Positions 1 to 37,173 of a DNA stretch of 64,000 bases are shown in pieces. The stretch lies in the NCBI GenBank assembly GCA_018027755.1, contig GCA_018027755.1_4098.1. One strand, written 5' to 3'. Made by a program: the position numbers and the translations under genes. This DNA comes from a phage. The notes below the pieces were generated by a model that worked only from the letters and a program-made list of their open reading frames with translations, made no database searches and was not told the origin of the DNA. Position 1 is the first letter of the stretch; each line of letters starts with the position of its first letter.

Positions 1-2
1 AA

Positions 3-344: not shown

Positions 345-365
345 CAATTAAAGTACTGAATCACT

Positions 366-392
366 AGCCCACCTTAAACAGTGGGCTTTTTT
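366..392 (+). terminator. rho-independent terminator
   Basis: stem AGCCCAC/GTGGGCT, 8-nt loop, T-run. Confidence 0.8.
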
Positions 393-545
393 GTGTCTAT
401 CGTTTACCAGGCCACCAGCACCGCCTAGAAACGATTCTAACGCATTAAACTGATTATCTGATGCATTGCCCTAGCTGGTGGCGTTAAAGTCGTTAGAATG
501 CGATTGAGAGCGTTTAAAGTATTTTGCAAAAAGTAATAAAAAGTA

Positions 546-574
546 CTTGCACGATTAAGAGATTAGCGTATAAT
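546..574 (+). promoter_or_regulatory. sigma70-like promoter
   Basis: CTTGCA, 17-nt spacer, TATAAT. Confidence 0.6.
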
Positions 575-619
575 TAATTACATCAAGGTAAGACACCTTA
601 ACTAACTGAGGATATAAAG

Positions 620-772
620 ATGAATACTTATGACCTGGATTGTTTTACTTTACAAGTAATGTCAGTATGCAGTAAGAAAGATTGGTCATCAAAGGAATTT
701 AAAGCAGTTATCGCGTGTGCAAAACACGGCAAGACTATCAATGAAACGGCATCAATCATTGATAAACTTTAA
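620..772 (+). CDS. hypothetical small protein (50 aa)
   Basis: ATG 8 nt after GAGGAT SD, downstream of promoter; below ORF-track cutoff. Confidence 0.5.
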   Translation: MNTYDLDCFTLQVMSVCSKKDWSSKEFKAVIACAKHGKTINETASIIDKL

Positions 773-780
773 AAAATAGT

Positions 781-809
781 TTGACAATAGTTTTAAGTAC
801 TGGCATAAT
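781..809 (+). promoter_or_regulatory. sigma70-like promoter
   Basis: TTGACA, 17-nt spacer with AGTACTGG, CATAAT. Confidence 0.65.
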
Positions 810-842
810 ACATACATCAACTACTGAATAGGAATCAAAACA

Positions 843-1070
843 ATGGCTATCGTAATCGCTTATGTAACTGGTACTACTGGCACTTCTTCTACTGTTGCTG
901 TAATTACCAACAAGAAAGGTGCGGAATTACATTCTGCAATGGATACCTGGGCGGTAAATGAGTTCGGTCAGTGGGCAAGTGTAGCATATGTTGAAACCTA
1001 TCAAGTGCCAACCATTAGCTTAACGGATCTCGGTGTAGATCGTATCCTTTGCCTGGATGAATTAAATTAA
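843..1070 (+). CDS. hypothetical protein (75 aa)
   Basis: track ORF; promoter upstream; SD AGGAA. Confidence 0.65.
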   Translation: MAIVIAYVTGTTGTSSTVAVITNKKGAELHSAMDTWAVNEFGQWASVAYVETYQVPTISLTDLGVDRILCLDELN

Positions 1071-1077
1071 AAAAGTA

Positions 1078-1139
1078 CTTGCAAAGTAAGTTGGATAAAG
1101 TATAATACATTACATCAAGGGGAGAAAATGGTTCTCCCC
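1078..1139 (+). promoter_or_regulatory. promoter plus conserved 5' leader hairpin
   Basis: CTTGCA-17-TATAAT, then GGGGAGAA-loop-TTCTCCCC hairpin at 1119-1139. Confidence 0.65.
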
Positions 1140-1157
1140 ACTAAGAGGAAACTAAAA

Positions 1158-1301
1158 ATGAAAACTTGTCAATGTGGTAAAAAATCTATTACTGGTTTGA
1201 AACGGGGCGTTGCTCTTTGTCAGTATCACTATAACGCTCAGGTATGGGGTAAAGAGTGGGCCGACCAGGTGGAAGCAGTAAAGAAAGCAAAAAGTAAGTA
1301 A
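1158..1301 (+). CDS. hypothetical small Cys-rich protein (47 aa)
   Basis: ATG after AAGAGGAA SD; CxC...C pattern; below track cutoff. Confidence 0.5.
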   Translation: MKTCQCGKKSITGLKRGVALCQYHYNAQVWGKEWADQVEAVKKAKSK

Positions 1302-1320
1302 AATTATTATCACAGTACTA

Positions 1321-1349
1321 TTGACATAGATTGATAGTACTGGCATAAT
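1321..1349 (+). promoter_or_regulatory. sigma70-like promoter (repeated promoter type)
   Basis: TTGACA-17-CATAAT with AGTACTGG; near-identical copies at 1615, 4474, 12669. Confidence 0.65.
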
Positions 1350-1382
1350 AGATTTTATCAAGACAACTAAGAGGAAACAATA

Positions 1383-1595
1383 ATGGCTATCATCACAAAA
1401 ATCAAAGTAAACAAATCACTGGTTAAGCTGGAAGAAGTGAAAGAAGGTTATAAAGTATCGTGGTGCGGCATGTATCGGATTTTTACAGATGTTGACGATG
1501 CAATCAATTACTACACTGACACGGTAAAAAACTTTGTTCGTGCTGATGTGGTTATGGCAGTGGCAACACACAAAGCATCGAAAGAAAGTAAGTAA
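1383..1595 (+). CDS. hypothetical protein (70 aa), MAII-start paralog
   Basis: track ORF; SD AAGAGGAA; N-terminus resembles 4530 gene. Confidence 0.7.
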   Translation: MAIITKIKVNKSLVKLEEVKEGYKVSWCGMYRIFTDVDDAINYYTDTVKNFVRADVVMAVATHKASKESK

Positions 1596-1614
1596 AAATA
1601 TTATCACAGTACTA

Positions 1615-1643
1615 TTGACATAGTTTGATAGTACTGGCATAAT
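1615..1643 (+). promoter_or_regulatory. sigma70-like promoter
   Basis: TTGACA-17-CATAAT, AGTACTGG before -10. Confidence 0.65.
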
Positions 1644-1676
1644 AGATTTTATCAAGACAACTAAGAGGAAATTAAA

Positions 1677-2021
1677 ATGGCTAATATCAACACTATCGCA
1701 AAACAAAATATCAACCTGTCTTCTGTTGAAGTTGTACATATTGCCGCTCGGCGTTGGTTCCAGGCTTCATATGGTAACACTTATTTCTCTTTAAGTGTAG
1801 ACGTAGAAATTGATGGTAATTTTATTGAAGTAGTAAACGTGCCGTTCCAATATGGATACGGGGATCACTTTGACACTGTAGCAATGGAAGAATTTAGCAA
1901 GGTTATTAATATGGAAGATAAAGAGTTTTTACGCGGTTCTTATCTTTCCCGTTTTTGCCGTGACAATAATATCACTGTTTACAGTTCGGTAACTGATGTT
2001 AAACGCAAAAAAGATCTTTAA
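1677..2021 (+). CDS. hypothetical protein (114 aa), paralog of 8202 gene
   Basis: track ORF; SD AAGAGGAA; shares GNTY...YGYG and C-terminal DVKRKKD with 8202-8525. Confidence 0.7.
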   Translation: MANINTIAKQNINLSSVEVVHIAARRWFQASYGNTYFSLSVDVEIDGNFIEVVNVPFQYGYGDHFDTVAMEEFSKVINMEDKEFLRGSYLSRFCRDNNITVYSSVTDVKRKKDL

Positions 2022-2101
2022 TTAGCTTTACTTTATGCAGATACTTTGATATAGTGTCTGCATAGGGGAAAGAAATTAAATTAACTTAAGAGGATCGTAT
2101 A

Positions 2102-2371
2102 ATGAAAAATATCAGTACTTTAATCGATGCAGGTACTCATGTTCGTCGGTCTATGGTTGCAACCAGTACTACAAAACAAGTAGCGAGCGGTTATCTTGTA
2201 TTTGTGCACGATGGTAAACTCCTGGAACGTTCAATCAATTTTGATGTTAAAAACAATTGCCGTTTTATTATCTTTCGCCGTGAACAATATAAGATCGACA
2301 TTCCAGCGAAGCCCATTAGCGGTGCGTACAACGTGCAATCATTGTTTGAACGTCAACCATACACCTATTAA
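2102..2371 (+). CDS. hypothetical protein (89 aa)
   Basis: track ORF; SD AAGAGGA. Confidence 0.65.
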   Translation: MKNISTLIDAGTHVRRSMVATSTTKQVASGYLVFVHDGKLLERSINFDVKNNCRFIIFRREQYKIDIPAKPISGAYNVQSLFERQPYTY

Positions 2372-2422
2372 TCAAAACATCGTTAGCGGTCGATTTAGGC
2401 CGCTTATATTGGGGATTATACC

Positions 2423-2695
2423 ATGAACGTTAATCAAGTACTGAATGAGATCGAAAGCATCATTAAACCGATGAAGCGTACTGATGCTATGTTAACACCG
2501 GAAGAATGCCGCCTTTATGAGCGTTACAGCGTCGAACAAGTCCAGGCAATGGCTATGGCTACCCCAGCCGTTAAACAGCCTGAGAACGCGTTACAGGACG
2601 TTACAGGGGATTATATCATCAATCCAGTACTAGGGAAGATGGCTGCAATCACCGAAGATCAACAAGACTACTTAAGCCAGTACTTAAAAGGTTAA
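2423..2695 (+). CDS. hypothetical protein (90 aa)
   Basis: track ORF; weak SD. Confidence 0.55.
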   Translation: MNVNQVLNEIESIIKPMKRTDAMLTPEECRLYERYSVEQVQAMAMATPAVKQPENALQDVTGDYIINPVLGKMAAITEDQQDYLSQYLKG

Positions 2696-2700
2696 TTAAT

Positions 2701-2910
2701 ATGCTTACTGTACAGGATAAGATCGACATCTTAAAGGTTAATATGTATGTGATTGATGCAGTACCTGGTAAAGTATTTGCATACGATGACAGTACTGTAA
2801 GCGATTTCTACTATAGCCAGGACGTGGGGGATCTTTCTGTACAGTCGGTTATTGAAAACGTAGTTAATGCAGCGTATGAGCATTTACTTTCAAATAGTAC
2901 TTGCAATTAG
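2701..2910 (+). CDS. hypothetical protein (69 aa)
   Basis: track ORF; 5 nt after upstream stop. Confidence 0.55.
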   Translation: MLTVQDKIDILKVNMYVIDAVPGKVFAYDDSTVSDFYYSQDVGDLSVQSVIENVVNAAYEHLLSNSTCN

Positions 2911-2960
2911 TTTTTAAACGCGTATAATGTTTTACATGAAGGGGAGAAATGATTCTCCCC
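2900..2960 (+). promoter_or_regulatory. promoter plus 5' leader hairpin
   Basis: CTTGCA-17-TATAAT; GGGGAGAAATGATTCTCCCC hairpin. Confidence 0.65.
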
Positions 2961-2979
2961 ACTAATTAAGGAATATGAA

Positions 2980-3126
2980 ATGAAAGCATCAAAAAAGAGT
3001 AATACTAAGAAAGCACGTTCAACCTTAGATGGGGTATTCCCTTTACGTTTCGTTGATGAAGTAGTTTCCTACCCGCCGGGCCTTACTCCTGAGATGGTAG
3101 AAAGTTTGCGTAAATCTAAAAAATAG
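2980..3126 (+). CDS. hypothetical small basic protein (48 aa)
   Basis: ATG after AAGGAA SD downstream of hairpin; below track cutoff. Confidence 0.5.
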   Translation: MKASKKSNTKKARSTLDGVFPLRFVDEVVSYPPGLTPEMVESLRKSKK

Positions 3127-3128
3127 TA

Positions 3129-3189
3129 CTTGCAATTAGTTTTCAGTACTGTATAATAGTTTACATGAAGGGGAGAAATGATTCTCCCC
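3129..3189 (+). promoter_or_regulatory. promoter plus 5' leader hairpin
   Basis: CTTGCA-17-TATAAT; GGGGAGAAATGATTCTCCCC hairpin. Confidence 0.65.
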
Positions 3190-3207
3190 AATAACAGGAG
3201 AAACAAA

Positions 3208-3360
3208 ATGAAACAATACAACGCTCGGTTTGATGTTACTATCGGTAACGGCAAAGGTCAATTCTCTTTCAGTACTCGCCGCAGTTATACAGAAAACTTC
3301 CTGCGTAATTGTGCACTGACCGCCGCACAAATTAAACATTACTTCCAGGCTAAAAAATGA
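3208..3360 (+). CDS. hypothetical protein (50 aa)
   Basis: ATG 7 nt after AGGAGA SD; track ORF 3178-3360 trimmed because its 5' part runs through the hairpin. Confidence 0.6.
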   Translation: MKQYNARFDVTIGNGKGQFSFSTRRSYTENFLRNCALTAAQIKHYFQAKK

Positions 3361-3446
3361 AATCATTAGCTTATTACAGTTCAGCGGTGATCGGTGCATT
3401 GATCGCGGCATTGTTAGTAACCTATCTATTCTTTATGGTGATTTAA
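3357..3446 (+). CDS. small hydrophobic peptide (29 aa), single predicted TM helix
   Basis: ATGA overlap with upstream stop; hydrophobic sequence. Confidence 0.4.
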   Translation: MKSLAYYSSAVIGALIAALLVTYLFFMVI

Positions 3447-3581
3447 ATGAATCCTAACGGTTTAATTTACAGTACTCCTAAAACGAAAGCAGATAAAGCG
3501 AAAGCACGTAAAGCGAAAGTAAAGGAGTACATTAAGCAAGGCATGACGCGAAAGGCGGCAGTACTGAAAGCTAAAAAATAA
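3447..3581 (+). CDS. hypothetical small basic protein (44 aa)
   Basis: ATG immediately after upstream stop; Lys/Ala-rich. Confidence 0.4.
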   Translation: MNPNGLIYSTPKTKADKAKARKAKVKEYIKQGMTRKAAVLKAKK

Positions 3582-3589
3582 ATGAAAAA

Positions 3590-3676
3590 AGTGGTTGACT
3601 TCGGTCAGCCATTTTGCTATTATATATTCATTGAGAGATAGCTCACTAGCCCACCGGGTGCATAAGTGTATCTATT
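3590..3676 (+). repeat. repeated intergenic element, copy 1 (embedded promoter)
   Basis: TTGACT-17-TATTAT, then conserved core AGCCCACCGGGTGCATAAGTGTATC. Confidence 0.6.
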
Positions 3677-3795
3677 ATATAAGTATTGAGTACTGAAAAC
3701 TATTTTTAAAAAGTACTTGCAAACTATCTCAATTGGCGTATAATGTTTTACATCGCAAGGGGAAACGGTTTCCCCTGGTAATAAGGAAACAAATC

Positions 3796-4137
3796 ATGAC
3801 TATCTCAATTGCTCAATCTAACTTTGAAAATGAAATCATCGCCCAGGCACTGCGTTTAAATGATGGTCGGGCCGAAATTAATTACGGTTTCAATTCAGGC
3901 GGTTGTGAAAACTATCAGTACTTTGTAACGGCTGATGGCGGTGTCCTGGGTATCAATACAGTTATTGTAAACATCCAAAAAATTAATTTCAATGATCCAG
4001 ACGATAGCCAGTTTTACATTGTAGGCGTAGACGTGAACTATGAGGATGACTCACTAACTGATGATCACACTGGCGAGCGGTTAGAAAGTGCATACGGTGA
4101 AGATGATTATCAGTCCGGTCCAGAAGATTTCGAATAA
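3796..4137 (+). CDS. hypothetical acidic protein (113 aa)
   Basis: ATG after AAGGAAA SD downstream of hairpin; track ORF trimmed. Confidence 0.65.
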   Translation: MTISIAQSNFENEIIAQALRLNDGRAEINYGFNSGGCENYQYFVTADGGVLGINTVIVNIQKINFNDPDDSQFYIVGVDVNYEDDSLTDDHTGERLESAYGEDDYQSGPEDFE

Positions 4138-4151
4138 TATAAAAAAATAGT

Positions 4152-4211
4152 TTGACAATAGATTATAGTACTGTATAATAGTTTACATCAAGGGGAGAAA
4201 AACTTCTCCCC
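4152..4211 (+). promoter_or_regulatory. promoter plus 5' leader hairpin
   Basis: TTGACA-16-TATAAT; GGGGAGAA...TTCTCCCC hairpin. Confidence 0.65.
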
Positions 4212-4233
4212 ACTAACAGAGAGAGAAAACAAA

Positions 4234-4446
4234 ATGGCTAATATCCGGTCGAAATTAAAAAATGCAAAACAAGTTTTATTTTCAGATCATGAATACTTTA
4301 ATAAAGATATTACAGGAGTTACAAGTATCAAGGAAGTAAAAGAAAAAACCGGTGTTTTGTGTGATGTGCGATTAGTTGGGACATTTGGGAATAACGTGCT
4401 ATATCGCTGCGGTGATTACAATTTTACACTGACTATCATTAACTAA
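4234..4446 (+). CDS. hypothetical protein (70 aa)
   Basis: track ORF; purine-rich SD. Confidence 0.65.
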   Translation: MANIRSKLKNAKQVLFSDHEYFNKDITGVTSIKEVKEKTGVLCDVRLVGTFGNNVLYRCGDYNFTLTIIN

Positions 4447-4529
4447 AAATATTATCACAGTACTATTGACATAGTTTGATAGTACTGACATAATAACTTT
4501 TATCAACTACACTACTAAGGAATTAAAAA

Positions 4530-4709
4530 ATGGCTATCATCGCAAAAACTGAAATCGTTGGTCTGGATTCTATCATCATGACGTTTGAAGATCAAAAAGG
4601 TATGTATGTAGTTTCCTATGGTGATTATGTTCGGGAGTATGAAACGGTAGACGAAGCCTTTGAAAGTTATATTCGCCAGGTGAATAAAGCATACGACGAC
4701 TACCGCTAA
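4530..4709 (+). CDS. hypothetical protein (59 aa), MAII-start paralog
   Basis: ATG after TAAGGAA SD; promoter repeat upstream; resembles 1383 gene; below track cutoff. Confidence 0.55.
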   Translation: MAIIAKTEIVGLDSIIMTFEDQKGMYVVSYGDYVREYETVDEAFESYIRQVNKAYDDYR

Positions 4710-4801
4710 AATATATTACCAGTACTATTAAATCTATTGACAACGTTTGATAGTACTGTATAATAAGTTTTATAAACAGTAATTAACTTAACCTAAGAGA
4801 G

Positions 4802-4954
4802 AGAAACAAAATGATCGCACTGGATTCATTCATCGACGCAGTACTGGCAAAAACTGGCGAGGATCTGACCGCAGAACAATACGCGATGATCGAGCAATGT
4901 CAGCAAAACGGTAAATCGGTGAAAGATACTGTTAAGATTATCCGCAAGATGTAA
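4802..4954 (+). CDS. hypothetical protein (50 aa)
   Basis: ATG after AGAGAGAGAAA; promoter upstream; E. coli-like codons. Confidence 0.5.
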   Translation, partial: RNKMIALDSFIDAVLAKTGEDLTAEQYAMIEQCQQNGKSVKDTVKIIRKM

Positions 4955-4960
4955 TATTAT

Positions 4961-4988
4961 AGCCCACTGGTTAACGCTGGTGGGCTTT
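4961..4988 (+). terminator. terminator-like hairpin
   Basis: stem AGCCCAC/GTGGGCT then short T-run. Confidence 0.45.
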
Positions 4989-5059
4989 AATCATTTACCC
5001 TATACAATGCCAGTACTAAACCGTTTATCTCGTTAGAATGCGTTACAGGACGTTTAACA

Positions 5060-5257
5060 ATGATTAGCATGAAATCAGTACAAAAACAAATAGAAACATT
5101 ATCAAAAATTAAACGTAAACAGTACTCCTTAGAATATACAATCAATGGTAACTATCATCTAATGAAAGAAAATAATTTTATAGTCATTGATGAATCATTG
5201 CAAATCATTAGTATAGTACTGAAAGCATTAATCAATGACAGAAAAAAATTAAAATAA
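5060..5257 (+). CDS. hypothetical protein (65 aa), doubtful
   Basis: track ORF; no clear SD; AT-rich. Confidence 0.3.
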   Translation: MISMKSVQKQIETLSKIKRKQYSLEYTINGNYHLMKENNFIVIDESLQIISIVLKALINDRKKLK

Positions 5258-5363
5258 TCTATTGACAATATCATCCAGTACTGGCATAATACTTACATCA
5301 AGACGAGAACGTCACTAACCCATAGGGTGCACAAATGTAACTATATAATATCGTTCAATAAAT

Positions 5364-5423
5364 GATCAAAAAAGTACTGGATCAATTTAACATAAGGAGT
5401 ATAATTCTGATCAATTCTTGATC
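5364..5423 (+). promoter_or_regulatory. cluster of four GATC sites in TGATCAA context
   Basis: GATC at 5364, 5380, 5409, 5420; upstream of TraR-like gene. Confidence 0.4.
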
Positions 5424-5586
5424 AAAGGCAATATACGCAGTTGAATTTATATAGACAATACAAAGGCGTTACTATCCGTGGTAATGCTGGTGGATATGTA
5501 GTATCATATGGTTTGAATAAGATTAGCACTAGTAGTATTATTGTAGCATTACAGTACTATAGTATTTTTATAATGAGGTTAAAATA

Positions 5587-5844
5587 ATGGCAGTAGGATA
5601 CGCGAAAGACGGGGCCGAACAAGACGAGATTCACGCAGTGATTCAGGCCGCCGTTAACCACGCTAGAAAGCAAATTAACGCACAAAGAGAATCACTGGTA
5701 CATTGCCTCGACTGCGGCGATAAAATCCCTGAGAATCGACGCCAGGCCGTTATAGGGTGCATGTATTGTATTACTTGCCAGGAGGATCATGATAGTACTT
5801 TTAAAAGAGATCCGCGTAATTGTTGGCATAGATCTATGAGATAA
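5587..5844 (+). CDS. TraR/DksA-family C4 zinc-finger protein
   Basis: CLDCGDKIPENRR...CMYCITCQ matches TraR/DksA zinc-finger signature. Confidence 0.7.
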   Translation: MAVGYAKDGAEQDEIHAVIQAAVNHARKQINAQRESLVHCLDCGDKIPENRRQAVIGCMYCITCQEDHDSTFKRDPRNCWHRSMR

Positions 5845-5907
5845 AAAGTATTGACAGTACTGAAAGATAGTGTATAATGTTTTATATCTTAACTGAGGAT
5901 AGTAATC

Positions 5908-6264
5908 ATGGGAATACAACATATCACGCGTACTACTGACAATGGAGAGATCACTGGTTATCAGGTACAGGGCAAAGTAGCACAATTGCAGTACTGGTTT
6001 GTTAAACGTGGAATCATTGCACCGGATCTTGATTATGACCGTGTAGCGTTTATTGATTCTCTTTATGTTGATCCTGATAGTCGGGGCAATGGTGAAGGTA
6101 ACGAATTAATGAATGCCTTTATTGATGCCGCCGGTGATTCAGATTGTATCATCTTAGAATGCGATACGGGAGAAGATAACGCCTTTAATCTTAAAGAATG
6201 GTACGAAGGTTTCGGATTCGAGGTATTGATAGATAGTGAATATCCTATCATGATTTTATCATAG
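5908..6264 (+). CDS. small GNAT-like acetyltransferase (tentative)
   Basis: LYVDPDSRGNGEGNELM resembles GNAT motif A; SD GAGGA. Confidence 0.45.
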   Translation: MGIQHITRTTDNGEITGYQVQGKVAQLQYWFVKRGIIAPDLDYDRVAFIDSLYVDPDSRGNGEGNELMNAFIDAAGDSDCIILECDTGEDNAFNLKEWYEGFGFEVLIDSEYPIMILS

Positions 6265-6342
6265 TACTTGCATTTAGTTTTCAGTACTGTTATAGTACTT
6301 ACATCAAGGGGAAACGTCTTCCCCTACTAAGAGGAAATGAAA

Positions 6343-6531
6343 ATGGAAAACTTATCAAGTATTTTAGTACAAGATGATTTTGGCAATCCTGGTAGTGCTA
6401 TCATTGTTCGGGGTAATAAAGCAACGTTTGTTATTGCTGGTGGGCCAGTACAGCGTAGCATTAAAAATAATGCTGTTACCATTAATAATGTACGCTATCG
6501 CTTAGATAAAGAATTGATTCATAAACTTTAA
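6343..6531 (+). CDS. hypothetical protein (62 aa)
   Basis: second ATG chosen for SD spacing (track start 6337). Confidence 0.6.
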   Translation: MENLSSILVQDDFGNPGSAIIVRGNKATFVIAGGPVQRSIKNNAVTINNVRYRLDKELIHKL

Positions 6532-6538
6532 AAAGTAT

Positions 6539-6598
6539 TTGACAATAGATTATAGTGCTGTATAATAAGTTACATGAAGGGGTGAAATGATTCTCCCC
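6539..6598 (+). promoter_or_regulatory. promoter plus 5' leader hairpin
   Basis: TTGACA-16-TATAAT; GGGGTGAAATGATTCTCCCC hairpin. Confidence 0.65.
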
Positions 6599-6615
6599 AC
6601 TAAGAGGAAAGAAAA

Positions 6616-6828
6616 ATGCAAGGTCAACTAATCGTTCGTAAATGGTCTGATACTAACGAAAAACCGTGGGATGTACAATACATCGGACCGGATGGGGTAT
6701 CACGTTATCAGCCTGGCGTAACGCATAGTACTGAGCAATTCGCAAACGCTCACCGCGAACGCCTGTTAGAATCCATGAAACAGGGATTCTGTGAAAAATT
6801 CATTCAAGATCATTGGCTGAAAGATTAA
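6616..6828 (+). CDS. hypothetical protein (70 aa)
   Basis: track ORF; SD AAGAGGAAA. Confidence 0.7.
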   Translation: MQGQLIVRKWSDTNEKPWDVQYIGPDGVSRYQPGVTHSTEQFANAHRERLLESMKQGFCEKFIQDHWLKD

Positions 6829-6845
6829 TATAAGGAGTACAGCTT

Positions 6846-6938
6846 ATGCAAATGAATCCGATGATTATTGTTTTAGCTGTACTTATGATCATTCATGCAA
6901 TAGTAGAAGTATTAACGCAATCAGGAGTAATAAAATGA
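6846..6938 (+). CDS. small hydrophobic peptide (30 aa)
   Basis: ATG after TAAGGAG SD; hydrophobic; first of three coupled small ORFs. Confidence 0.45.
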   Translation: MQMNPMIIVLAVLMIIHAIVEVLTQSGVIK

Positions 6939-7108
6939 TTCAAGTAGAATTATCAGTACTGAAAGATCTGTTTTATCGGTTAGGTACTACTGGCGAGTAT
7001 CCTAAAAGTGATACCGCAAAACTTTTTGTATCACTCGACTTATGGCAACGCGAACAATTAGTAATGTCCTGGCGTAAAGGTAAAGCAGATAGCGAGGTGA
7101 AAGCATGA
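6935..7108 (+). CDS. hypothetical protein (57 aa)
   Basis: ATGA overlap with upstream ORF. Confidence 0.45.
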   Translation: MIQVELSVLKDLFYRLGTTGEYPKSDTAKLFVSLDLWQREQLVMSWRKGKADSEVKA

Positions 7109-7254
7109 AAGAATTCTTATTCGAAGTAGTGTTTCAAGGTGTCGGTAGTAACCAACTGATTCGCTCAAGTGGTTACAATGTTAACCAGGCATGGAATAAC
7201 ATTAAACAAATGTACCCGAACGCTATCACCTATCGCAACCCGAAACAAGTTTAA
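7105..7254 (+). CDS. hypothetical protein (49 aa)
   Basis: ATGA overlap with upstream ORF. Confidence 0.45.
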   Translation: MKEFLFEVVFQGVGSNQLIRSSGYNVNQAWNNIKQMYPNAITYRNPKQV

Positions 7255-7261
7255 AAATAAT

Positions 7262-7346
7262 TGAAAAAGGGATTGACACCGGTCAGTCCCTTTGCTATTA
7301 TATACGCATAGAAACAAATCAGCCCACAGGGTGCATAAATGTATCT
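7262..7346 (+). repeat. repeated intergenic element, copy 2
   Basis: TTGACA-17-TATTAT plus core AGCCCACAGGGTGCATAAATGTATC. Confidence 0.6.
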
Positions 7347-7569
7347 ATTGTTTGCTGGTGGCTAGTACTGAAAACTATTTTTAAAAAAGTACTTGCATTG
7401 TACTTAGAATCAAGTATAATGTTTTACATCAGGACGGGGAACGAAACAAGTAACCCCGTTAAGTAGTCCAGGAGTAAGACATACGAAAAACTCCCCTGAT
7501 AAAATAGTTTGACAATAGAAATTAAACGAGTATAATACTTACATCAACCACTGATAAGGAAACATAAAA

Positions 7570-7845
7570 ATGCGGATTCTACTGACAGCTAACGAAATCG
7601 AACAAGTACTGACTACTAACCTGGAAGACTGGAAACGTGAAGCAGATATCCAGGCGGTTCAATGGCTTAACGATAAGTTAACGCCGGATGACTTAAGCAA
7701 GATTGTAGATCCTCAATTCTACGAAGATATTCACGACACCGCGTTAAGCGTCGAGGATGTACTTGATAAGCACTACATTGATACTGATTTACATGTTTAC
7801 GGTCGTAAAAACTTTATCACTATTCACGACATTTACAATACTTAA
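7570..7845 (+). CDS. hypothetical protein (91 aa)
   Basis: track ORF; SD TAAGGAAA; promoter upstream. Confidence 0.7.
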   Translation: MRILLTANEIEQVLTTNLEDWKREADIQAVQWLNDKLTPDDLSKIVDPQFYEDIHDTALSVEDVLDKHYIDTDLHVYGRKNFITIHDIYNT

Positions 7846-7932
7846 GTATTGACAAAGTATCTTAGTACTGTATAATAGTTTACATCAAGGCGGGGAAATG
7901 GTTCCCCTCCTAACTAAAAGAGAGAAATTAAA

Positions 7933-8115
7933 ATGGCTAAGTGCACTATCTGTAAGAAAGAAATCGTATTAGTTCCAAGTGCCCGTGAACGTGCCGCTCG
8001 GTTCGGTGGCAAAGCGTCAGACTATACAAAAATGTTTACTGCCCATGCAGATTGCCAGGTAGCAAAACGTTCACAAGAAAGCGTAGAATTAATGCGTAAA
8101 CTTTCCAAAAAATAA
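7933..8115 (+). CDS. hypothetical small Cys-containing protein (60 aa)
   Basis: track ORF; promoter and hairpin upstream. Confidence 0.65.
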   Translation: MAKCTICKKEIVLVPSARERAARFGGKASDYTKMFTAHADCQVAKRSQESVELMRKLSKK

Positions 8116-8201
8116 GTATTGACAAAGTATCTTAGTACTGTATAATAGTTTACATCAAGTGAGGGGAAACGGTTCCCCTCCTAACAGAGAGAGAAATAAA
8201 A

Positions 8202-8525
8202 ATGGCTATGATCCTTACCCAGAAAGTGGAATTGAAAATTGTAACCTCCTTTGACATTAAAGTTAATCGCTGGACTGATCGGAACGGCAATACTTACCAC
8301 TCTTGCTACGTGTCTGCATTGATTGGTGATCGTTGGGAAGACCTGGGACACGAAACTTTTACATACGGTTACGGTACGCAAGGCGAATACACGGGCTTGG
8401 AGATCATTAAAGAAACCGTTATAGGTTTCAACCCGAAAGAAAAAGTTATTCACCGCATCGAAAAAGAGATTAACAAAGAAATAACAGTTCGCTACTACGA
8501 TGTAAAACGTAAGAAAGACATGTAA
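8202..8525 (+). CDS. hypothetical protein (107 aa), paralog of 1677 gene
   Basis: track ORF; shares GNTY...YGYG and DVKRKKD with 1677-2021. Confidence 0.7.
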   Translation: MAMILTQKVELKIVTSFDIKVNRWTDRNGNTYHSCYVSALIGDRWEDLGHETFTYGYGTQGEYTGLEIIKETVIGFNPKEKVIHRIEKEINKEITVRYYDVKRKKDM

Positions 8526-8620
8526 TAGAATCCATTTAAAGTACTATTTGACATTACACAGATAGTACTTTATAATAGACTCTAACTTGTAGTACTAACT
8601 CAACTAATAGGATGTATACC

Positions 8621-9016
8621 ATGATTACTAAATTCTACGCTACCCGTGAAGCTGCCCGTATTGTTGCACGCGAGGAAGGAGCAGCATTTAAAGACATGGG
8701 AACGACAGCACCGAAAGGTCAACGCTGGGCCGTACAGTTCAAAGAAATCTCTGATATTGTGAATTCACCTGAGCCAGTACTGACAGCAGCAGAACTAAAA
8801 CGAGCGGATATGCTGGCGGCAATACTTGACGCTCAAGATGAATTTATCGCTGATTCTGATATCAAAGTACAGGTAAACCACACCGCATGGACTCACGCGG
8901 ATCACCTGGCAAACCTTAAGCGTCCAAGTGAACTGATTCGCAACCAGAAAGAGATCCGACACGACCGTAAGGGTAATCGTGTAACAGTATACAGTAAACG
9001 CCGCCAGGTTATCTAA
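8621..9016 (+). CDS. hypothetical protein (131 aa)
   Basis: ATG with AGGA 8 nt upstream; track start 8612 alternative. Confidence 0.65.
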   Translation: MITKFYATREAARIVAREEGAAFKDMGTTAPKGQRWAVQFKEISDIVNSPEPVLTAAELKRADMLAAILDAQDEFIADSDIKVQVNHTAWTHADHLANLKRPSELIRNQKEIRHDRKGNRVTVYSKRRQVI

Positions 9017-9038
9017 TAACTTGCAGTACTAACAACAC

Positions 9039-9063
9039 GGCGGGATCAGTTCCCGCCTTTTTT
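9039..9063 (+). terminator. rho-independent terminator
   Basis: stem GGCGGGA/TCCCGCC then T-run. Confidence 0.8.
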
Positions 9064-9077
9064 ATAGGACAAACAAA

Positions 9078-9332
9078 ATGATTAAGGTTCAACTATATAA
9101 AGATAACATCTTACGGGTACACTATAAAGCACCGAAGAGAATCATCACAAAGGCCGTACAGCTTGCTAATGAGTTTATTAATGGTAACCTATTACCAAGG
9201 AAGTTAAGCAACGGGAAACTGCGTGTAATCGACGTGGACACTAACAACAGGATAGTAATCGAGAACACAGGAAAAATAAACCTTTATGAACACCAACAAT
9301 ATAATAAGAAAATAAAACTAATATCACGTTGA
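9078..9332 (+). CDS. hypothetical basic protein (84 aa)
   Basis: track ORF; weak SD. Confidence 0.5.
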   Translation: MIKVQLYKDNILRVHYKAPKRIITKAVQLANEFINGNLLPRKLSNGKLRVIDVDTNNRIVIENTGKINLYEHQQYNKKIKLISR

Positions 9333-9385
9333 CAGTACTCAAATGTTTTAGTACTATGTACACATACCAACACGGGAGAAACAAA

Positions 9386-9604
9386 ATGAAATTATCTAAA
9401 ATCGAAAAAACAACTATTGATGTAGCAGTTAAGCACGGTTATACCTTTCGTAATGATTCACATTTTACCAATTTTCAACAAGGACAGAGAACTATTAAAA
9501 AACTAATTGACAAAGGCTTATTAGTTAAAGTAGATAACGGTAACGGTGTGGAGTATCAACCAACACAGGACGCATTTTATTTTAAGAAATATAATATTAT
9601 CTAA
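9386..9604 (+). CDS. hypothetical protein (72 aa)
   Basis: ATG after GGGAGAAACAAA; promoter TTGACA-17-TACTAT at 9331; track ORF trimmed. Confidence 0.6.
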   Translation: MKLSKIEKTTIDVAVKHGYTFRNDSHFTNFQQGQRTIKKLIDKGLLVKVDNGNGVEYQPTQDAFYFKKYNII

Positions 9605-9662
9605 TTGACAGTACTCAAATGTTTTAGTACTATATGTACATACCAACACGGGGAAAAACAAA

Positions 9663-9905
9663 ATGATTACTTTAGAAAAACGTATCAAAGAAACTACATC
9701 GCTGGTGGAATTGTTAACAGTACTCAAATGTAAAACAACACCATTCAGCACGCCGGACTTTATTAATATGGTTGATGTTAATGGTCGCTATCGTATCACG
9801 GTCGAACAAGGAGCGGCGAAAGTATTCAGTACTAAAAACACTAAGGAAGTGATCCACGCCGTTAATGTTAAAAAAGTAGTTGCCATTGATAGTAAAGTAC
9901 TGTAA
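9663..9905 (+). CDS. hypothetical protein (80 aa)
   Basis: track ORF; duplicated copy of the 9331 promoter at 9604. Confidence 0.6.
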   Translation: MITLEKRIKETTSLVELLTVLKCKTTPFSTPDFINMVDVNGRYRITVEQGAAKVFSTKNTKEVIHAVNVKKVVAIDSKVL

Positions 9906-9936
9906 GATAGTTTCATTAACTCAAGGAGTAAATGCA

Positions 9937-10521
9937 ATGCGTAATTATACTAAATTCATCCGTACACTGTCAGAAATGGAAACCAACAAAGAGATCCTTT
10001 CAGCTTGTCGGTTAGCTGGCCTGGAGATCATCGGTGCTGGTTCTTCCCGTATAGTATTCGCTTTAAATGATCGGTTAGTGATTAAGGTCGCGAATTGTGA
10101 TGCGGGTGTCGAACAAAATGAAACTGAATGTAAGGTATGGAATTTTTTAGACTATGACCGCCCTCAGTTGAAACAGTACTTTGCAAAGGTGCATATGCAT
10201 TTATGCGATCCTGATAATATGTTTATCGTTATGGATCGGTTGAGTACTGCAAGCAAAGGCAGTGTGAAGCACGTTAACGCGTGCAATGAATTAAAGTACA
10301 ATATTAAACGTAATGCAATCGAACGCCAGCACCGCTTTGCTGATGCACTACAACACGTTGATGATACATTATCAACACTAACGATAAGAGATATCAGAAA
10401 ACAGAATATCGGCCAGGATCGTAATGGCCTTATTAAAGTACTTGATTACGGTTTAACCCGCAATATCTGGAATCAGTACTATAAAAAGCGTGATGTGGCA
10501 GCAAGTAAGGTAACACGATAA
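9937..10521 (+). CDS. Ser/Thr protein-kinase-like protein
   Basis: IGAGSSRIVF Gly-loop, VIKVA lysine, IRDIRKQNIG catalytic loop, LDYG (DFG-like); SD AAGGAG. Confidence 0.55.
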   Translation: MRNYTKFIRTLSEMETNKEILSACRLAGLEIIGAGSSRIVFALNDRLVIKVANCDAGVEQNETECKVWNFLDYDRPQLKQYFAKVHMHLCDPDNMFIVMDRLSTASKGSVKHVNACNELKYNIKRNAIERQHRFADALQHVDDTLSTLTIRDIRKQNIGQDRNGLIKVLDYGLTRNIWNQYYKKRDVAASKVTR

Positions 10522-10529
10522 AAAAGATT

Positions 10530-10620
10530 AAAAAAGGGATTGACTCCGGTCAGTCCCTTTGCTATTATATATCCATTGAGAGATAACTCACTGACCCATA
10601 GGGTGCGGAAGTGTATCTAT
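10530..10620 (+). repeat. repeated intergenic element, copy 3
   Basis: TTGACT-17-TATTAT plus conserved core. Confidence 0.6.
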
Positions 10621-10742
10621 TATATAAGTATTCAGTACTGAAAACTATTTTTAAAAAAGTACTTGCATTGTACTTAGAATCAAGTATAATGTTTTATATC
10701 GAGAGGGGGAAATGGTTCTCCCTGGCAATAAGGAATAAAATC

Positions 10743-10964
10743 ATGACTACAATGACTTGCATTTACGCTTCCAATCGTCTGAATGATGCGGCCTTTAATG
10801 TTGATTCAGAATATCAATGTTATCGGGATGAAAATAAAAAAGTTTTTGTAGTTGATAATAATGGTTTCCATATTGAATTACAATCCGGCTTCACTGGTGT
10901 TGATGGTAAATCAGTATGGGGCGTACAGGATGATAAAGGTACATATCATTTTAAACGTAATTAA
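10743..10964 (+). CDS. hypothetical protein (73 aa)
   Basis: ATG after TAAGGAATAAAATC; track ORF trimmed past hairpin. Confidence 0.65.
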   Translation: MTTMTCIYASNRLNDAAFNVDSEYQCYRDENKKVFVVDNNGFHIELQSGFTGVDGKSVWGVQDDKGTYHFKRN

Positions 10965-11048
10965 GTATTTGACAAAGTATCTTAGTACTGTATAATAGTT
11001 TACATCAAGGGGAGAATAGTTCTCCCCGATACTAAAAGGAATAAAATC

Positions 11049-11456
11049 ATGACTACTACCAATCAAGCTCGGAACATCACCAACGATAAAAATCATGCTG
11101 CAATGGTCGCTGGTTACATTGAAGCTATGCAATTCAGTACTGTACACAATGAGAACGGCGAATACCTGGAAGATTATGAATTATCAGAGCAAGCCCATCA
11201 AGCGGCAGTGATTGCATGTTCACGTTTCCTTGCTGTACATGGTGAAGATATGGAAACAGTACAAAAACACCATAATCCTGATTATACTTATAGTCATGCA
11301 GGTCATGATCTCTTTCTTACTCGCGAAGGTCACGGCACTGGTTTTTGGGATCGTGATATCGGTCACTATGATGATATATTCACTAAGTACTGCGAAGAAA
11401 TCAACGTTTGCGATCCCTATGTAGGCGATGATAATCTAATCTATATGGGCGAATAA
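11049..11456 (+). CDS. hypothetical protein (135 aa)
   Basis: track ORF; SD AAAGGAA; promoter and hairpin upstream. Confidence 0.7.
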   Translation: MTTTNQARNITNDKNHAAMVAGYIEAMQFSTVHNENGEYLEDYELSEQAHQAAVIACSRFLAVHGEDMETVQKHHNPDYTYSHAGHDLFLTREGHGTGFWDRDIGHYDDIFTKYCEEINVCDPYVGDDNLIYMGE

Positions 11457-11544
11457 AAGTATTTGACAAAGTATATCAGTACTGTATAATAGTTTACATC
11501 AAGGGGAGAATAGTTCTCCCCCACCAATAAAAGGAAACAAAATT

Positions 11545-11817
11545 ATGTCCAGCTACTCCGCTACTATGATCATTAAAGATATGAACGGTAATCCTACTTC
11601 TGCTGGTGGATCATTTGGAAACATTAATTTAGATGGGCGGTTATCCATGCAATCAGCCATCGATACAGCGAAAGAAGTTTTTAAGAATGAATGTACTGTA
11701 AGCAAGCTGGATTATATGGGATTCGCTATCGAGAAAACTAATCGTTTTGTGAACTACAAAAATCCACTGATGATTGATACTAACCTGAAAGCTAACGAAG
11801 TGGAATACTTATTATGA
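11545..11817 (+). CDS. hypothetical protein (90 aa)
   Basis: track ORF; SD AAAGGAAA. Confidence 0.7.
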   Translation: MSSYSATMIIKDMNGNPTSAGGSFGNINLDGRLSMQSAIDTAKEVFKNECTVSKLDYMGFAIEKTNRFVNYKNPLMIDTNLKANEVEYLL

Positions 11818-12005
11818 CAGTTGAAGAAGTTAAAAAAGTACTGGCAGTACTACGCTATCATAATCATTGCAAGGTGAAGAATGATCCTGATTATCTCGAT
11901 TCATCCCTGGAAGAGGATACACTACAAGCAATAAGCCATATGCAAAAAATGCTTAAGCGTATGACCGAAAAGAATAGACCGGACTATATCGGAAATAAAA
12001 TTTAA
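11814..12005 (+). CDS. hypothetical protein (63 aa)
   Basis: track ORF; ATGA overlap with upstream gene. Confidence 0.6.
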   Translation: MTVEEVKKVLAVLRYHNHCKVKNDPDYLDSSLEEDTLQAISHMQKMLKRMTEKNRPDYIGNKI

Positions 12006-12091
12006 AAAGTACTTGCATTGTAGTTAGATTAACGTATAATGTTTTATATCGAGAGGGGAAATGGTTTCCCCTCAAGTCCAGGAGATACACC

Positions 12092-12355
12092 ATGAACACT
12101 ATCGAAATCACTATCAATGCACACGTATACGACAACGTAGTACTGCAAACTACTATGACCGCTAATGATACCAGTACTTTGCGGAATACTGTTATTAGTG
12201 CCGTATGTGCTGCAATCGGTGATGTTGCCCTGGAAAATGCAGAACATATCAACAACGGTTTCACTATGTGCAAACGTGATAACGCAAAACATATCATCGT
12301 GGAAGGTTACGGCGGTGTAGAATTTAATGTTTATATGAAAAAAGTATTTGCATAA
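12092..12355 (+). CDS. hypothetical protein (87 aa)
   Basis: track ORF; SD CAGGAGA. Confidence 0.7.
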   Translation: MNTIEITINAHVYDNVVLQTTMTANDTSTLRNTVISAVCAAIGDVALENAEHINNGFTMCKRDNAKHIIVEGYGGVEFNVYMKKVFA

Positions 12356-12422
12356 TAACTAAAACAAAGTATAATGTTTTGCATAGGGGGAGATATCCTC
12401 CCCCACTAAAAGGAGTAATAAA

Positions 12423-12647
12423 ATGGCTAACTTTGATGAACTGATGCGGGAAGTAGCTACCCTGGCAGAAGAGAAGAAATCATTCGATTCTATCTATAAC
12501 ACCTCTTACCGTGATTCAGTACTGGCATGTACTCAGGATCAAAAAGATGAACTAATCGCCACATATCATGAAGCATGGAAGTACTACCGCCAATGGGAGA
12601 AAGAAGAAAGCGAGTCTACCATCAACGGCATCAATAATCTAATCTAA
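12423..12647 (+). CDS. hypothetical protein (74 aa)
   Basis: track ORF; SD AAAGGAG. Confidence 0.7.
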   Translation: MANFDELMREVATLAEEKKSFDSIYNTSYRDSVLACTQDQKDELIATYHEAWKYYRQWEKEESESTINGINNLI

Positions 12648-12723
12648 AAGTTTTATTTCAGTACTATTGACATAGCTTGATAGTACTGATGTAATAACTT
12701 TACTAACTACAAGGGGAAACATA

Positions 12724-12981
12724 ATGGAACAGTTCACACAATATCGGGTAAATCCTCAAGCTATGGCCTACGTAGAAGACCATAAAACGTTACCAGTACT
12801 GCAACCAGTTAAAGGCCATATCTATCGTGCAATGTCGTGGAGTACGGCCCAGGATGGCTATAAAACCGTAGCTGTCGGTATGTACTGCGGTAATGGTGAA
12901 TGGTTTGATCCAAATAATCCGGTCGCCGTTGACAGTACTGAAAAAATGAAATGGGCCGACTACATCGAAGATATTTCATAA
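12724..12981 (+). CDS. hypothetical protein (85 aa)
   Basis: track ORF; repeated promoter type upstream. Confidence 0.65.
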   Translation: MEQFTQYRVNPQAMAYVEDHKTLPVLQPVKGHIYRAMSWSTAQDGYKTVAVGMYCGNGEWFDPNNPVAVDSTEKMKWADYIEDIS

Positions 12982-13071
12982 AAACTATTTGACAGTACTA
13001 ACCAGTAATGTATAATGTTTTACATAGAGCGGGGGAATAGTTCTCCCGCCAATAGTTTGGAGTAAAACATT

Positions 13072-13272
13072 ATGTCTATCGCTATCGCCCTGGTTGAAGT
13101 ACTGAAAGAAGCTAAAGCCAACCTTATCGATGTACAGATTAAGGAATTGCAAAACGGCTTAATCGGCTGCACTTGTACCGCTGGCGGTGCGGCAGACTAT
13201 CGAGAACACGAATCACTCGAATCACTGGTTCGGTATCTTACCATGATCGTTGATGATTGGAGAATCATCTAA
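13072..13272 (+). CDS. hypothetical protein (66 aa)
   Basis: track ORF; SD TGGAGT. Confidence 0.65.
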   Translation: MSIAIALVEVLKEAKANLIDVQIKELQNGLIGCTCTAGGAADYREHESLESLVRYLTMIVDDWRII

Positions 13273-13284
13273 CAAAAAAAGAAT

Positions 13285-13370
13285 AAAAAAAGGGATTGAC
13301 TCCGGTCAGTCCCTTTGCTATTATATACGCATAGACAAAAACTAGCCCACAGGGTGCATAAGTGTATCCA
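13285..13370 (+). repeat. repeated intergenic element, copy 4
   Basis: TTGACT-17-TATTAT plus core AGCCCACAGGGTGCATAAGTGTATC. Confidence 0.6.
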
Positions 13371-13519
13371 AAATATATAGTTAATAACGGTGAGTAACTA
13401 TCTGCTGGTGGAGTGAAAACTATTAATAAAAAAAGTATTGACAAAGTATATCAGTACTGCGATAATGTATCTCGTAGGGCGGCAATGGTGCGACGGCCCA
13501 CAAAGTTAGGAGATTCAAA

Positions 13520-13852
13520 ATGACTACTTCAATCGCTATCGTTAAAGCTTTCATCCGTACTAATGTTTCCTCTGTATTCATCGACGGCCTCGACCGTAAC
13601 GTAGAATACTCAATCATTATCGCACAAACGGCAAACGGTTCTCGGTACATCCTTAATGATAGTGAAGCAAATCACTACTACTTCACTAAAGCCACTGGCT
13701 TTAAACGCATCGATGCTGATGTAGTATACGCTAAGATGAATAAGCTGGTAGATAAGATTAACGCTAAAGGTACTATAGATTTACAGTACTGGACCGAAAC
13801 CGATCCAGAATATGGATCTCACCGCTACCTGAATCCAGGTATTAAAATGTAA
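13520..13852 (+). CDS. hypothetical protein (110 aa)
   Basis: track ORF; SD TAGGAGA. Confidence 0.7.
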   Translation: MTTSIAIVKAFIRTNVSSVFIDGLDRNVEYSIIIAQTANGSRYILNDSEANHYYFTKATGFKRIDADVVYAKMNKLVDKINAKGTIDLQYWTETDPEYGSHRYLNPGIKM

Positions 13853-13941
13853 AAAGTACTTGCATAGTACTTAGAATCAAGTATAATGTTTTACATAGAG
13901 AGGGGGAAATGGTTCTCCCTCCTAAATTAAGGAGTTTTATC

Positions 13942-14343
13942 ATGACCTTCTCAATCAATTCCTTCGCTGACGTTTTAGTACTGGCTCGGACTTTCGGTAA
14001 AGATGCACTGGAGTACGCTGTAAGTAATGGTACTATCCAACCGGAACAGTGCCGCATCATTGGAAACTGCAAACGTTGGGCGGTATCCAATACTATTGCA
14101 CTGGAAAACTTCCACGATGGCAACAATGAATATTCTGTTGATGTAGTATTCGAAGCCGTTGATCTCGGCGGTATCTATAATACTAACCTGAATGATGTGC
14201 GTATCGTTCGCACGGGGTTCGGTGCTTATGATGTATCTATTCGTGAAGCTATGAACACCGGATACATTAGCAAGGACTTACTTGCTCACATCATGCAGCT
14301 GTGTACGGAACGTAACGAAGCACGTACTATCTTAGGGCTGTAA
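13942..14343 (+). CDS. hypothetical protein (133 aa)
   Basis: ATG after TAAGGAG SD; track ORF trimmed. Confidence 0.7.
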   Translation: MTFSINSFADVLVLARTFGKDALEYAVSNGTIQPEQCRIIGNCKRWAVSNTIALENFHDGNNEYSVDVVFEAVDLGGIYNTNLNDVRIVRTGFGAYDVSIREAMNTGYISKDLLAHIMQLCTERNEARTILGL

Positions 14344-14368
14344 GCAATACACATCACCAAACATCATA

Positions 14369-14388
14369 GGCCGCTCTCTAGCGGCCTT
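14369..14388 (+). terminator. terminator-like hairpin
   Basis: stem GGCCGC/GCGGCC; weak U-tract. Confidence 0.4.
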
Positions 14389-14411
14389 AACTATATCAGG
14401 AGGGCATACAT

Positions 14412-14621
14412 ATGTTCTATACAGTATACAGCGTTCTAGGCACTATTGCAGGCGTACATGATAACGTCAATGATGCTATGCGTACAGTACTGCAACAGGT
14501 TCCACTAAAGCCTAAGACCATTAAGCAGATGACAGCACGACTAACCAGGGCGACCGATGGCGTGGAAGTATGGCAGGACTACGGGGATACACAGATAATC
14601 GTAAGCGTAACGAAGGATTAA
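14412..14621 (+). CDS. hypothetical protein (69 aa)
   Basis: track ORF; SD AGGAGG. Confidence 0.7.
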   Translation: MFYTVYSVLGTIAGVHDNVNDAMRTVLQQVPLKPKTIKQMTARLTRATDGVEVWQDYGDTQIIVSVTKD

Positions 14622-14655
14622 TGCGTAAAGGGATCTAGTACTGATTCAGAAAAAA

Positions 14656-14721
14656 GTCAAGGCGTTTTTAAAATTATGCGTTAAAAAAATGCATAGGTAA
14701 TCCCTTGACTTTTTTGAAATA
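14656..14721. repeat. 13-bp inverted repeat with 40-nt loop at module boundary
   Basis: AAAAAAGTCAAGG...CCTTGACTTTTTT; lies at compositional shift. Confidence 0.5.
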
Positions 14722-14871
14722 AAAGGGATTGGACTATGGCAAAATGCGTAGGGGGCTAAAGGGCGGGTAACCTTAGCGACTTCGATAAAGGGGTATTACG
14801 AATAAAATGTTATTGATTTTTTATACGAATCGTATATTATAGGATTGATATTATTTTTTAATGGAGTCCCT

Positions 14872-30671: not shown

Positions 30672-30680
30672 GATTATAAA

Positions 30681-31175: not shown

Positions 31176-31176
31176 A

Positions 31177-36111: not shown

Positions 36112-36116
36112 AACAA

Positions 36117-37166: not shown

Positions 37167-37173
37167 GGTTTAT

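Follow-up and report, generated by a model that had tools for sequence, protein, structure and literature searches.

A drastically shortened protein-kinase-like protein encoded in the presumed early region of Asteriusvirus jumbo phages

The window analysed here, a stretch of 64,000 nt of phage DNA (NCBI GenBank assembly GCA_018027755.1, contig GCA_018027755.1_4098.1), carries an intact ORF of 194 codons with an ATG start on its plus strand (Table 1). It is the sole ORF of at least 150 aa within the first 23 kb; in the window as a whole, ORFs of at least this size are found nearly exclusively on the plus strand. Comparison of six Asteriusvirus orthologues yielded dN/dS values of 0.02-0.18, which identifies the ORF as a real gene under purifying selection. 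The initial annotation had read the product as a Ser/Thr-kinase-like protein, based on four motifs that follow one another in the order of a kinase domain, and all four are present in that order. The Gly-rich loop reads GAGSSR and carries an invariant Arg (R38) at the position of the third Gly of GxGxxG. E64, located inside a helix of the predicted model (residues 55-73), is presumed to represent the αC glutamate. The catalytic loop, IRDIRKQN, exhibits the canonical spacing between Asp and Asn, with Ile in place of His and with Arg instead of Lys at D+2, a variable position. N157 is present in this protein and in all but one of 11 close relatives; it varies across the wider family, and its conservation is limited to the Asteriusvirus/RaK2 clade.

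Table 1. Features at and around the kinase gene (positions refer to the 64,000-nt window).
Feature	Position	Strand	Basis
Equivalent of the direct terminal repeat, inner ~14.8 kb	1..14770	.	Collinearity with vB_Ec-M-J; boundary approximate
ParE-like toxin-domain gene, 84 aa, conserved neighbour on the upstream side of the kinase gene	9078..9332	+	PF24732, E 4.6e-11
Nearest upstream sigma-70-like promoter, TTGACA-17-TACTAT	9605..9633	+	Consensus scan only
80-aa ORF immediately 5' of the kinase gene	9663..9905	+	ORF list
Shine-Dalgarno sequence AAGGAG, 8 nt before the ATG of the kinase gene	9923..9928	+	Read from sequence
CDS, minimal protein-kinase-like protein, 194 aa, 22.4 kDa, pI 9.3	9937..10521	+	ORF, dN/dS, PHROG 4301, AF2 model
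Gly-rich loop IIGAGSSRIVF (G33, G35, S36, R38), residues 31-41	10027..10059	+	Sequence, alignment; strands β1/β2 in model
VIKVA, residues 48-52; β3 lysine K50 invariant	10078..10092	+	Alignment
Family signature G57-x-x-Q60-N61-x-x-E64	10105..10128	+	Alignment; same stretch aligns with SteC N-lobe
Catalytic loop IRDIRKQNIG, residues 150-159; D152 and G159 invariant, N157 at D+5	10384..10413	+	Alignment
LDYG, DFG equivalent, residues 169-172; D170 and G172 invariant	10441..10452	+	Alignment, model
Terminator-like hairpin, 12 nt past the kinase stop codon	10533..10560	+	Sequence; equivalent site annotated as terminator in G17

Over its first ~14 kb, the window contains dozens of ORFs of 40-140 aa, all on the plus strand, which are interspersed with repeated promoter cassettes; seven perfect TTGACA-N16/17-TATAAT promoters occur within 6.5 kb, together with hairpin terminators. 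Such a combination of dense sigma-70 promoters, small plus-strand ORFs and terminators is the layout of an early region that depends on host RNA polymerase, and we infer from it that the kinase is expressed early. A literature search for a transcriptome of an Asteriusvirus or a RaK2-like phage returned none. The nearest upstream promoter, of which a near-identical copy is found at 9329-9357, is presumed to start a unit of two genes, in which the 80-aa ORF (without match in the family search) is presumably co-transcribed with the kinase gene. The hairpin downstream of the kinase gene also embeds the -35 box of the next promoter. Across window positions 1-14000 (plus strand), near-identical TTGACA-16/17-TATAAT cassettes reach an extreme density, with leaders that often form a GGGGAGAA..TTCTCCCC hairpin, and direct-repeat families of 14-16 copies are present. 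An intergenic cassette of ~130 nt recurs at 3575-3720, 7253-7400, 10520-10670 and 13276-13420, with a partial copy near 5240-5390. It consists of, in this order, a terminator hairpin AAAGGGATTGACTCCGGTCAGTCCCTTT (with a -35 box in loop and stem), TATTAT, a conserved CCCAYAGGGTGCAYAAGTGTATCTAT block and a second promoter, and could represent promoters arranged in tandem or specify a short non-coding RNA. The cassette has no match in Rfam, and Rfam and tRNA scans of the entire window were likewise empty.

Upstream of the two-gene unit, in the presumed early region of what is a lytic phage, lies the gene for a ParE-like protein. The gene is syntenic in phage Muenster (64% identity) and in a metagenomic contig (84% identity), where it adjoins the kinase gene; it is thus located upstream of the kinase in all three lineages, and its product has diverged far less than the kinase. 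A gene for an obvious antitoxin was not seen. This neighbour fits a host-takeover module and proves nothing about the kinase itself.

Searches with megablast and tblastn assigned the window to the genus Asteriusvirus (PBECO4, 121Q, G17, Sharanji, vB_Ec-M-J), whose members are jumbo myoviruses of E. coli with genomes of about 350-385 kb. Orthologues of the kinase with 91-100% identity were found in 35 phage records, and homologues of the same length with 36-40% identity in jumbo phages of Klebsiella (RaK2, K64-1, Muenster), Salmonella (Munch, SE_PL, 7t3) and Erwinia. Two copies deviate in their records: the CDS in the PBECO4 RefSeq entry (NC_027364, 136219-136803) is called at 147 aa although the full 194-codon ORF is intact, and the copy in MH494197 (CMSTMSU, 116446-117023) is unannotated and matches in two pieces with 78.7% identity, so that it may be disrupted or mis-sequenced. 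In vB_Ec-M-J, the orthologue (16,690-17,274) is located inside the annotated direct terminal repeat (DTR; 1-21,525), and the Muenster homologue (17,325-17,909) inside a terminal repeat spanning 1-20,030. Records that contain both repeats carry the kinase gene twice. For phage fEgEco12, restriction digests have verified a repeat of ~21 kb (PMC13070987). Collinearity with vB_Ec-M-J positions the inner repeat boundary of the window at ~14,770 and therefore the kinase gene ~4.3 kb inside the repeat. Given this position, with dozens of other small genes and their consensus sigma-70 promoters around it, the gene is most likely transcribed by the RNA polymerase of the host as soon as the DNA has entered the cell.

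Several sets of paralogous genes were observed in the remainder of the window. Twenty-four small ORFs (about 65-90 aa), arranged back to back in a tandem array on the plus strand (14872-20508), start almost exactly at the expected inner repeat boundary, and two further copies of these paralogues occur at 34581-34968. Additional sets were found at 30681-39953, 29441-36479 and 56759-58168 (plus strand); in them, eight ORFs measure about 150-165 aa, a further four about 120-170 aa, and another four, with LNDIQFTYK-like N-termini, about 90-100 aa.

In sequence searches, the protein was consistently linked to protein kinases, each time with low scores. Its two best Pfam matches are Pkinase and PK_Tyr_Ser-Thr, and the former (PF00069; E 0.0022) reaches 17.9 bits, which is below the curated gathering threshold of 31.7 that Pfam sets for a Hanks-type kinase; only two of 90 family members attain Pkinase at E<=0.01. 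All 60 matches listed in a sequence search of the PDB are protein kinases, each of them weak, the best being MKK4 (E 0.008) with an alignment that passes through RDI(K/R)xxNI...DFG/DYG. PADLOC gave weak matches to the kinase-containing PD-T4-6 system and NCBIfam similarly weak, generic kinase matches, those of NCBIfam scoring under the curated thresholds. The APH, choline-kinase, Kdo and RIO families were without match even at E<=10 in the Pfam, PDB-sequence and NCBIfam searches. In PHROGs, the protein was assigned to phrog_4301 (E 8e-42), labelled as of unknown function. An exhaustive profile search of cluster representatives retrieved 2087 sequences at E<=1e-3, of which 253 reached E<=1e-10; the best of those listed are mostly 160-300 aa long. 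A second homologue search retrieved 534 proteins, none with a Pfam domain and many from contigs of 100-346 kb. Close relatives all measure 191-212 aa. Three longer proteins, P0021 (693 aa), P0022 (923 aa) and P0027 (468 aa), consist of two to four complete minimal kinase-like domains in tandem on one polypeptide, each of which carries GxGSSR, K, QN..E, D and DYG. On these sequence data, the protein belongs to what appears to be a large, uncurated jumbo-phage family of minimal kinase domains that is distinct in sequence from both T7 gp0.7 (T7K) and canonical kinases.

Conservation within the family was evaluated in an alignment of 90 relatives with a mean identity of 25%. Thirteen columns are invariant (G35, S36, R38, K50, A52, G57, Q60, N61, E64, D152, G159, D170 and G172); they cover the Gly loop, the β3 lysine, the αC glutamate, the catalytic aspartate and the aspartate and glycine of DFG, and include the motif residues singled out in the initial annotation. 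Other invariant positions are specific to the family, namely R38 and G57, Q60 and N61 just ahead of E64, and Y182 is nearly invariant.

The fold was predicted with AF2. A model built on 11 close homologues was poor (pLDDT 50) and was discarded, and a wider alignment was therefore assembled from the representative search and the second homologue search. The model based on the resulting 90 sequences is confident (pLDDT 92.8, pTM 0.90) and exhibits, from N- to C-terminus, two helices, β1-β3, αC (55-73), β4/β5, αD, αE, the catalytic loop, β7/β8, DYG and a short helix (175-182). It is bilobal, with a five-stranded sheet and αC in the predicted N-lobe and a helical C-lobe that contains the catalytic loop and the DFG strand pair, and the catalytic residues K50, E64, D152 and D170 are invariant in the 90 sequences, with N157 present here. 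Foldseek matched the model with a probability of 1.00 to OSR1, Lpg2603, MEK1 and APH(2''), and superposition on solved kinases covered ~120-137 of the 194 residues at 3.2-3.8 Å (TM 0.37-0.47). The annotators of Muenster had independently obtained an HHpred probability of 99.9% for their homologue to a kinase chain of 6J5T. Taken together, the confident model, the Foldseek matches, the conserved residues and the independent HHpred result indicate a protein-kinase-like fold, predicted with high confidence, with a complete catalytic inventory. The structure prediction and the comparison with kinase folds that had been proposed as a check thus support the kinase-like identity, as do the exclusively kinase matches listed from the PDB and the two leading Pfam families. 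A coincidental occurrence of the motifs in a protein of another fold, to which the sub-threshold Pfam and NCBIfam matches and the poor first model could be taken to point, is effectively refuted by the quality of the second model and its match to kinase folds, by the presence of all kinase catalytic residues among the invariant columns of the 90-sequence family and by the HHpred result.

The protein is unusual in what follows the core. Only 22 residues separate DYG from the C-terminus, and an activation segment with APE, a P+1 pocket and helices αF-αI (subdomains VIII-XI) are absent from both the sequence and the model. With a chain that ends at this point and a sub-threshold Pfam score, the protein falls outside the Hanks-type kinase domain in two defining respects, the Pfam threshold and subdomains VIII-XI. 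The gene encodes a real, drastically shortened protein-kinase-like enzyme with all catalytic residues intact. The αF helix normally anchors the catalytic and regulatory spines of kinases. In view of the missing αF and the short tail, the domain might be nearly or entirely inactive on its own, either because a host or phage partner has to complete the C-lobe or because it serves mainly as an ATP-binding regulator or pseudokinase. Regulation of this type is seen in two other minimal kinases, as SteC requires phosphorylation and OspG an E2~ubiquitin conjugate for activity (PMC13395416). Further hints in this direction are the three to four tandem domains per chain of P0021 and P0022, among which domain-domain contacts may matter, and the conserved ParE-like neighbour as a possible partner. 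We nevertheless regard this scenario as quite improbable: the catalytic residues are all invariant under strong purifying selection, which is unlike the pattern of pseudokinases, T7K is hyperactive although similarly short on its sequence, and no partner gene consistently adjoins the kinase across the family.

Analysis of the genomic context of distant homologues revealed no universally conserved partner gene; RNA-repair or tRNA genes recur in some cases. In three metagenomic jumbo-phage contigs (L004, 6717-9967; L010, 7556-9679; L016, 6574-10190), distant members adjoin RNA-repair or tRNA-maturation genes, coding either for a Pnkp-like AAA_33 protein, a NUDIX protein and T4 RNA ligase 1, or for a CCA-adding enzyme, an HD protein and a NUDIX protein. 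Aminoglycoside phosphotransferases and the archaeal tRNA 2'-kinase Ark1 are equally small enzymes of the kinase fold that act on non-protein substrates. The protein could accordingly be an active phosphotransferase whose substrate is RNA or tRNA, a (signalling) nucleotide or another small molecule, as small-molecule and RNA kinases superpose on the model equally well and the peptide-binding half of the kinase fold is missing. Such a substrate is considered unlikely, if somewhat easier to envisage than an inactive domain. Sequence matches are restricted to protein kinases, RDIRKQN and DYGL resemble the HRDLKxxN and DFGL of Ser/Thr kinases, and T7K, with a kinase domain equally short on its sequence, is a bona fide protein kinase. 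Moreover, the RNA-gene contexts stem from a small number of metagenomic jumbo phages that may be related to one another. Neither the gene studied here nor its close relatives have such neighbours, and other contexts, a distant one among them, lack RNA genes.

A putative kinase annotation of this protein already exists in GenBank for ph0011, Turkey3, fEgEco12, Munch, SE_PL, Muenster, K64-1 and fENko-Kae01, as well as in one paper; a literature search for functional or biochemical work on the kinase or its family retrieved none. As its kinase-like nature had been annotated before, the interest of the protein lies in what it does rather than in its recognition. The reading we favour, and hold to be reasonably likely, is that of a catalytically competent, ultra-minimal protein-kinase-like enzyme that is made early and phosphorylates host proteins in the course of takeover or counter-defence. 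By analogy with T7K, the kinase probably phosphorylates host proteins soon after infection. In this model, a normal N-lobe with the Gly-rich loop, K50 and αC with E64 would be combined with a C-lobe in which αD, αE, the catalytic loop with D152 and N157, DYG with D170 and a single short helix at the C-terminus are all that is left. The enzyme would be produced early from two gene copies per genome and would constitutively phosphorylate host, and perhaps phage, proteins in an ATP-dependent manner, which may redirect host machinery or disarm defence systems, possibly in parallel with a T7K-like enzyme of the same phages.

This second enzyme is encoded elsewhere in the genome. Sharanji gp144 (224 aa; locus L012, 14183-14857) is of the T7K type (LGMGMYS...AFKV...PDIHSSN...ITDP) and aligns with T7K, and in Asteriusviruses the gp144-type gene is located ~46 kb from the kinase gene described here. 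Members of the T7K family carry DP(V) in place of DFG (PMC13645617), and the Sharanji paper enters the orthologue of the present kinase (WNN14351.1) separately as "another protein kinase, function unknown." From the DP versus DYG motifs and the Sharanji paper, we infer that the T7K homologue reported for these jumbo phages is a different gene. Judged by their sequences, Asteriusviruses thus encode two putative minimal kinases that are unrelated in sequence. A second, T7K-like kinase was not found inside the 64-kb window; a weak tblastn match at 58007-58147 was rejected, as it falls into a family of small paralogues. Depletion of Ser, Thr and Tyr, a signature reported for T7K phages, amounted to only 16.6% versus 19.5% for the proteins of the repeat region, a difference that is based on crude gene calls and not attributable to this kinase.

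A more far-reaching proposal, which we put forward as speculative and would not rate as probable, concerns the family in its entirety. Its members, typically 180-230 aa long, assigned to PHROG 4301 and to no Pfam family, would form at least 253 clusters at 50% identity. Most would reside on contigs as large as those of jumbo phages, and some are fusions of three to four domains; the family would have converged on the architecture of T7K with signatures of their own (GxGSSR, GxxQNxxE and a C-terminal YY). They might constitute a second, independent phosphorylation weapon of phages, either a broad anti-defence kinase or one directed at a new class of substrate (RNA or a signalling nucleotide), carried beside a T7K-like kinase in the same genome. 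Recent work has demonstrated that the kinase of T7 disables several defence systems of bacteria through mass phosphorylation (PMC13645617). If the kinase described here acts comparably, takeover by phosphorylation would be widespread among jumbo phages, and two such enzymes would be carried by Asteriusviruses, which are under consideration for therapy. In addition, a kinase without αF helix or activation loop would illustrate, in nature, how small a part of the fold may suffice for catalysis.

Several known kinases resemble the protein in part. Hanks-type kinases such as M. tuberculosis PknB, MKK4 and MEK1 possess the subdomains VIII-XI that are missing here, and their "HRD" motif and third Gly-loop glycine are replaced by "IRD" and Arg, respectively. 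Bud32, Rio1/Rio2, Ark1/TkArkI and APH(2'') have more structure after the DFG equivalent, act on other substrates and in other cellular contexts, and showed no sequence-family match to this kinase in Pfam and NCBIfam. The effector kinases SteC, OspG and NleH share with it a small domain, a depleted C-lobe and, on the reading favoured here, an action inside a foreign cell that is thereby rewired. When the PDB was searched with the family profile, the N-lobe of SteC scored best (8JBI; E 6e-4), with a common G-S-G-S...V-x-K-I-x-x-N-E-x-G-I pattern; active SteC, however, requires an activation segment and αF (PMC13395416), both of which this kinase lacks. In superpositions, OspG, NleH, Bud32, Rio and Ark1 were similar in kind and no closer structurally.

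The functional model for the protein is T7K, an early, hyperpromiscuous and hyperactive kinase that disarms Retron-Eco9 and DarTG1 (PMC13645617). Sequence homology between the two was not detectable: BLASTP gave an E value of 4.8, hhalign a probability of 0.1-0.4% with an alignment out of register, and all three hhalign comparisons, including that with gp144, were negative. The families are also classified separately, as PHROG 4301 and as PHROG 2828/PF27024 for T7K; DYG with an invariant Gly is opposed to DPV/DP, the signatures GxGSSR and GxxQNxxE are missing from T7K, and the present protein ends after the core, without the C-terminal shut-off/DNA-binding domain of T7K members in Autographiviridae. 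In a structural search of BFVD, by contrast, T7K-type proteins were among the best non-orthologous matches, with TM values of 0.51-0.58 compared to 0.37-0.47 for solved kinases. Both kinases are encoded by phages in early regions, presumed as such for the present kinase, that the RNA polymerase of the host transcribes, and their sequences have a very similar layout: a helix ending in A-G-L/F precedes the Gly loop, about 137-140 residues extend from this loop to the DFG equivalent, the spacings from D to N (+5) and from N to D (+13) are identical, and both end 20-30 residues later without αF-αI.
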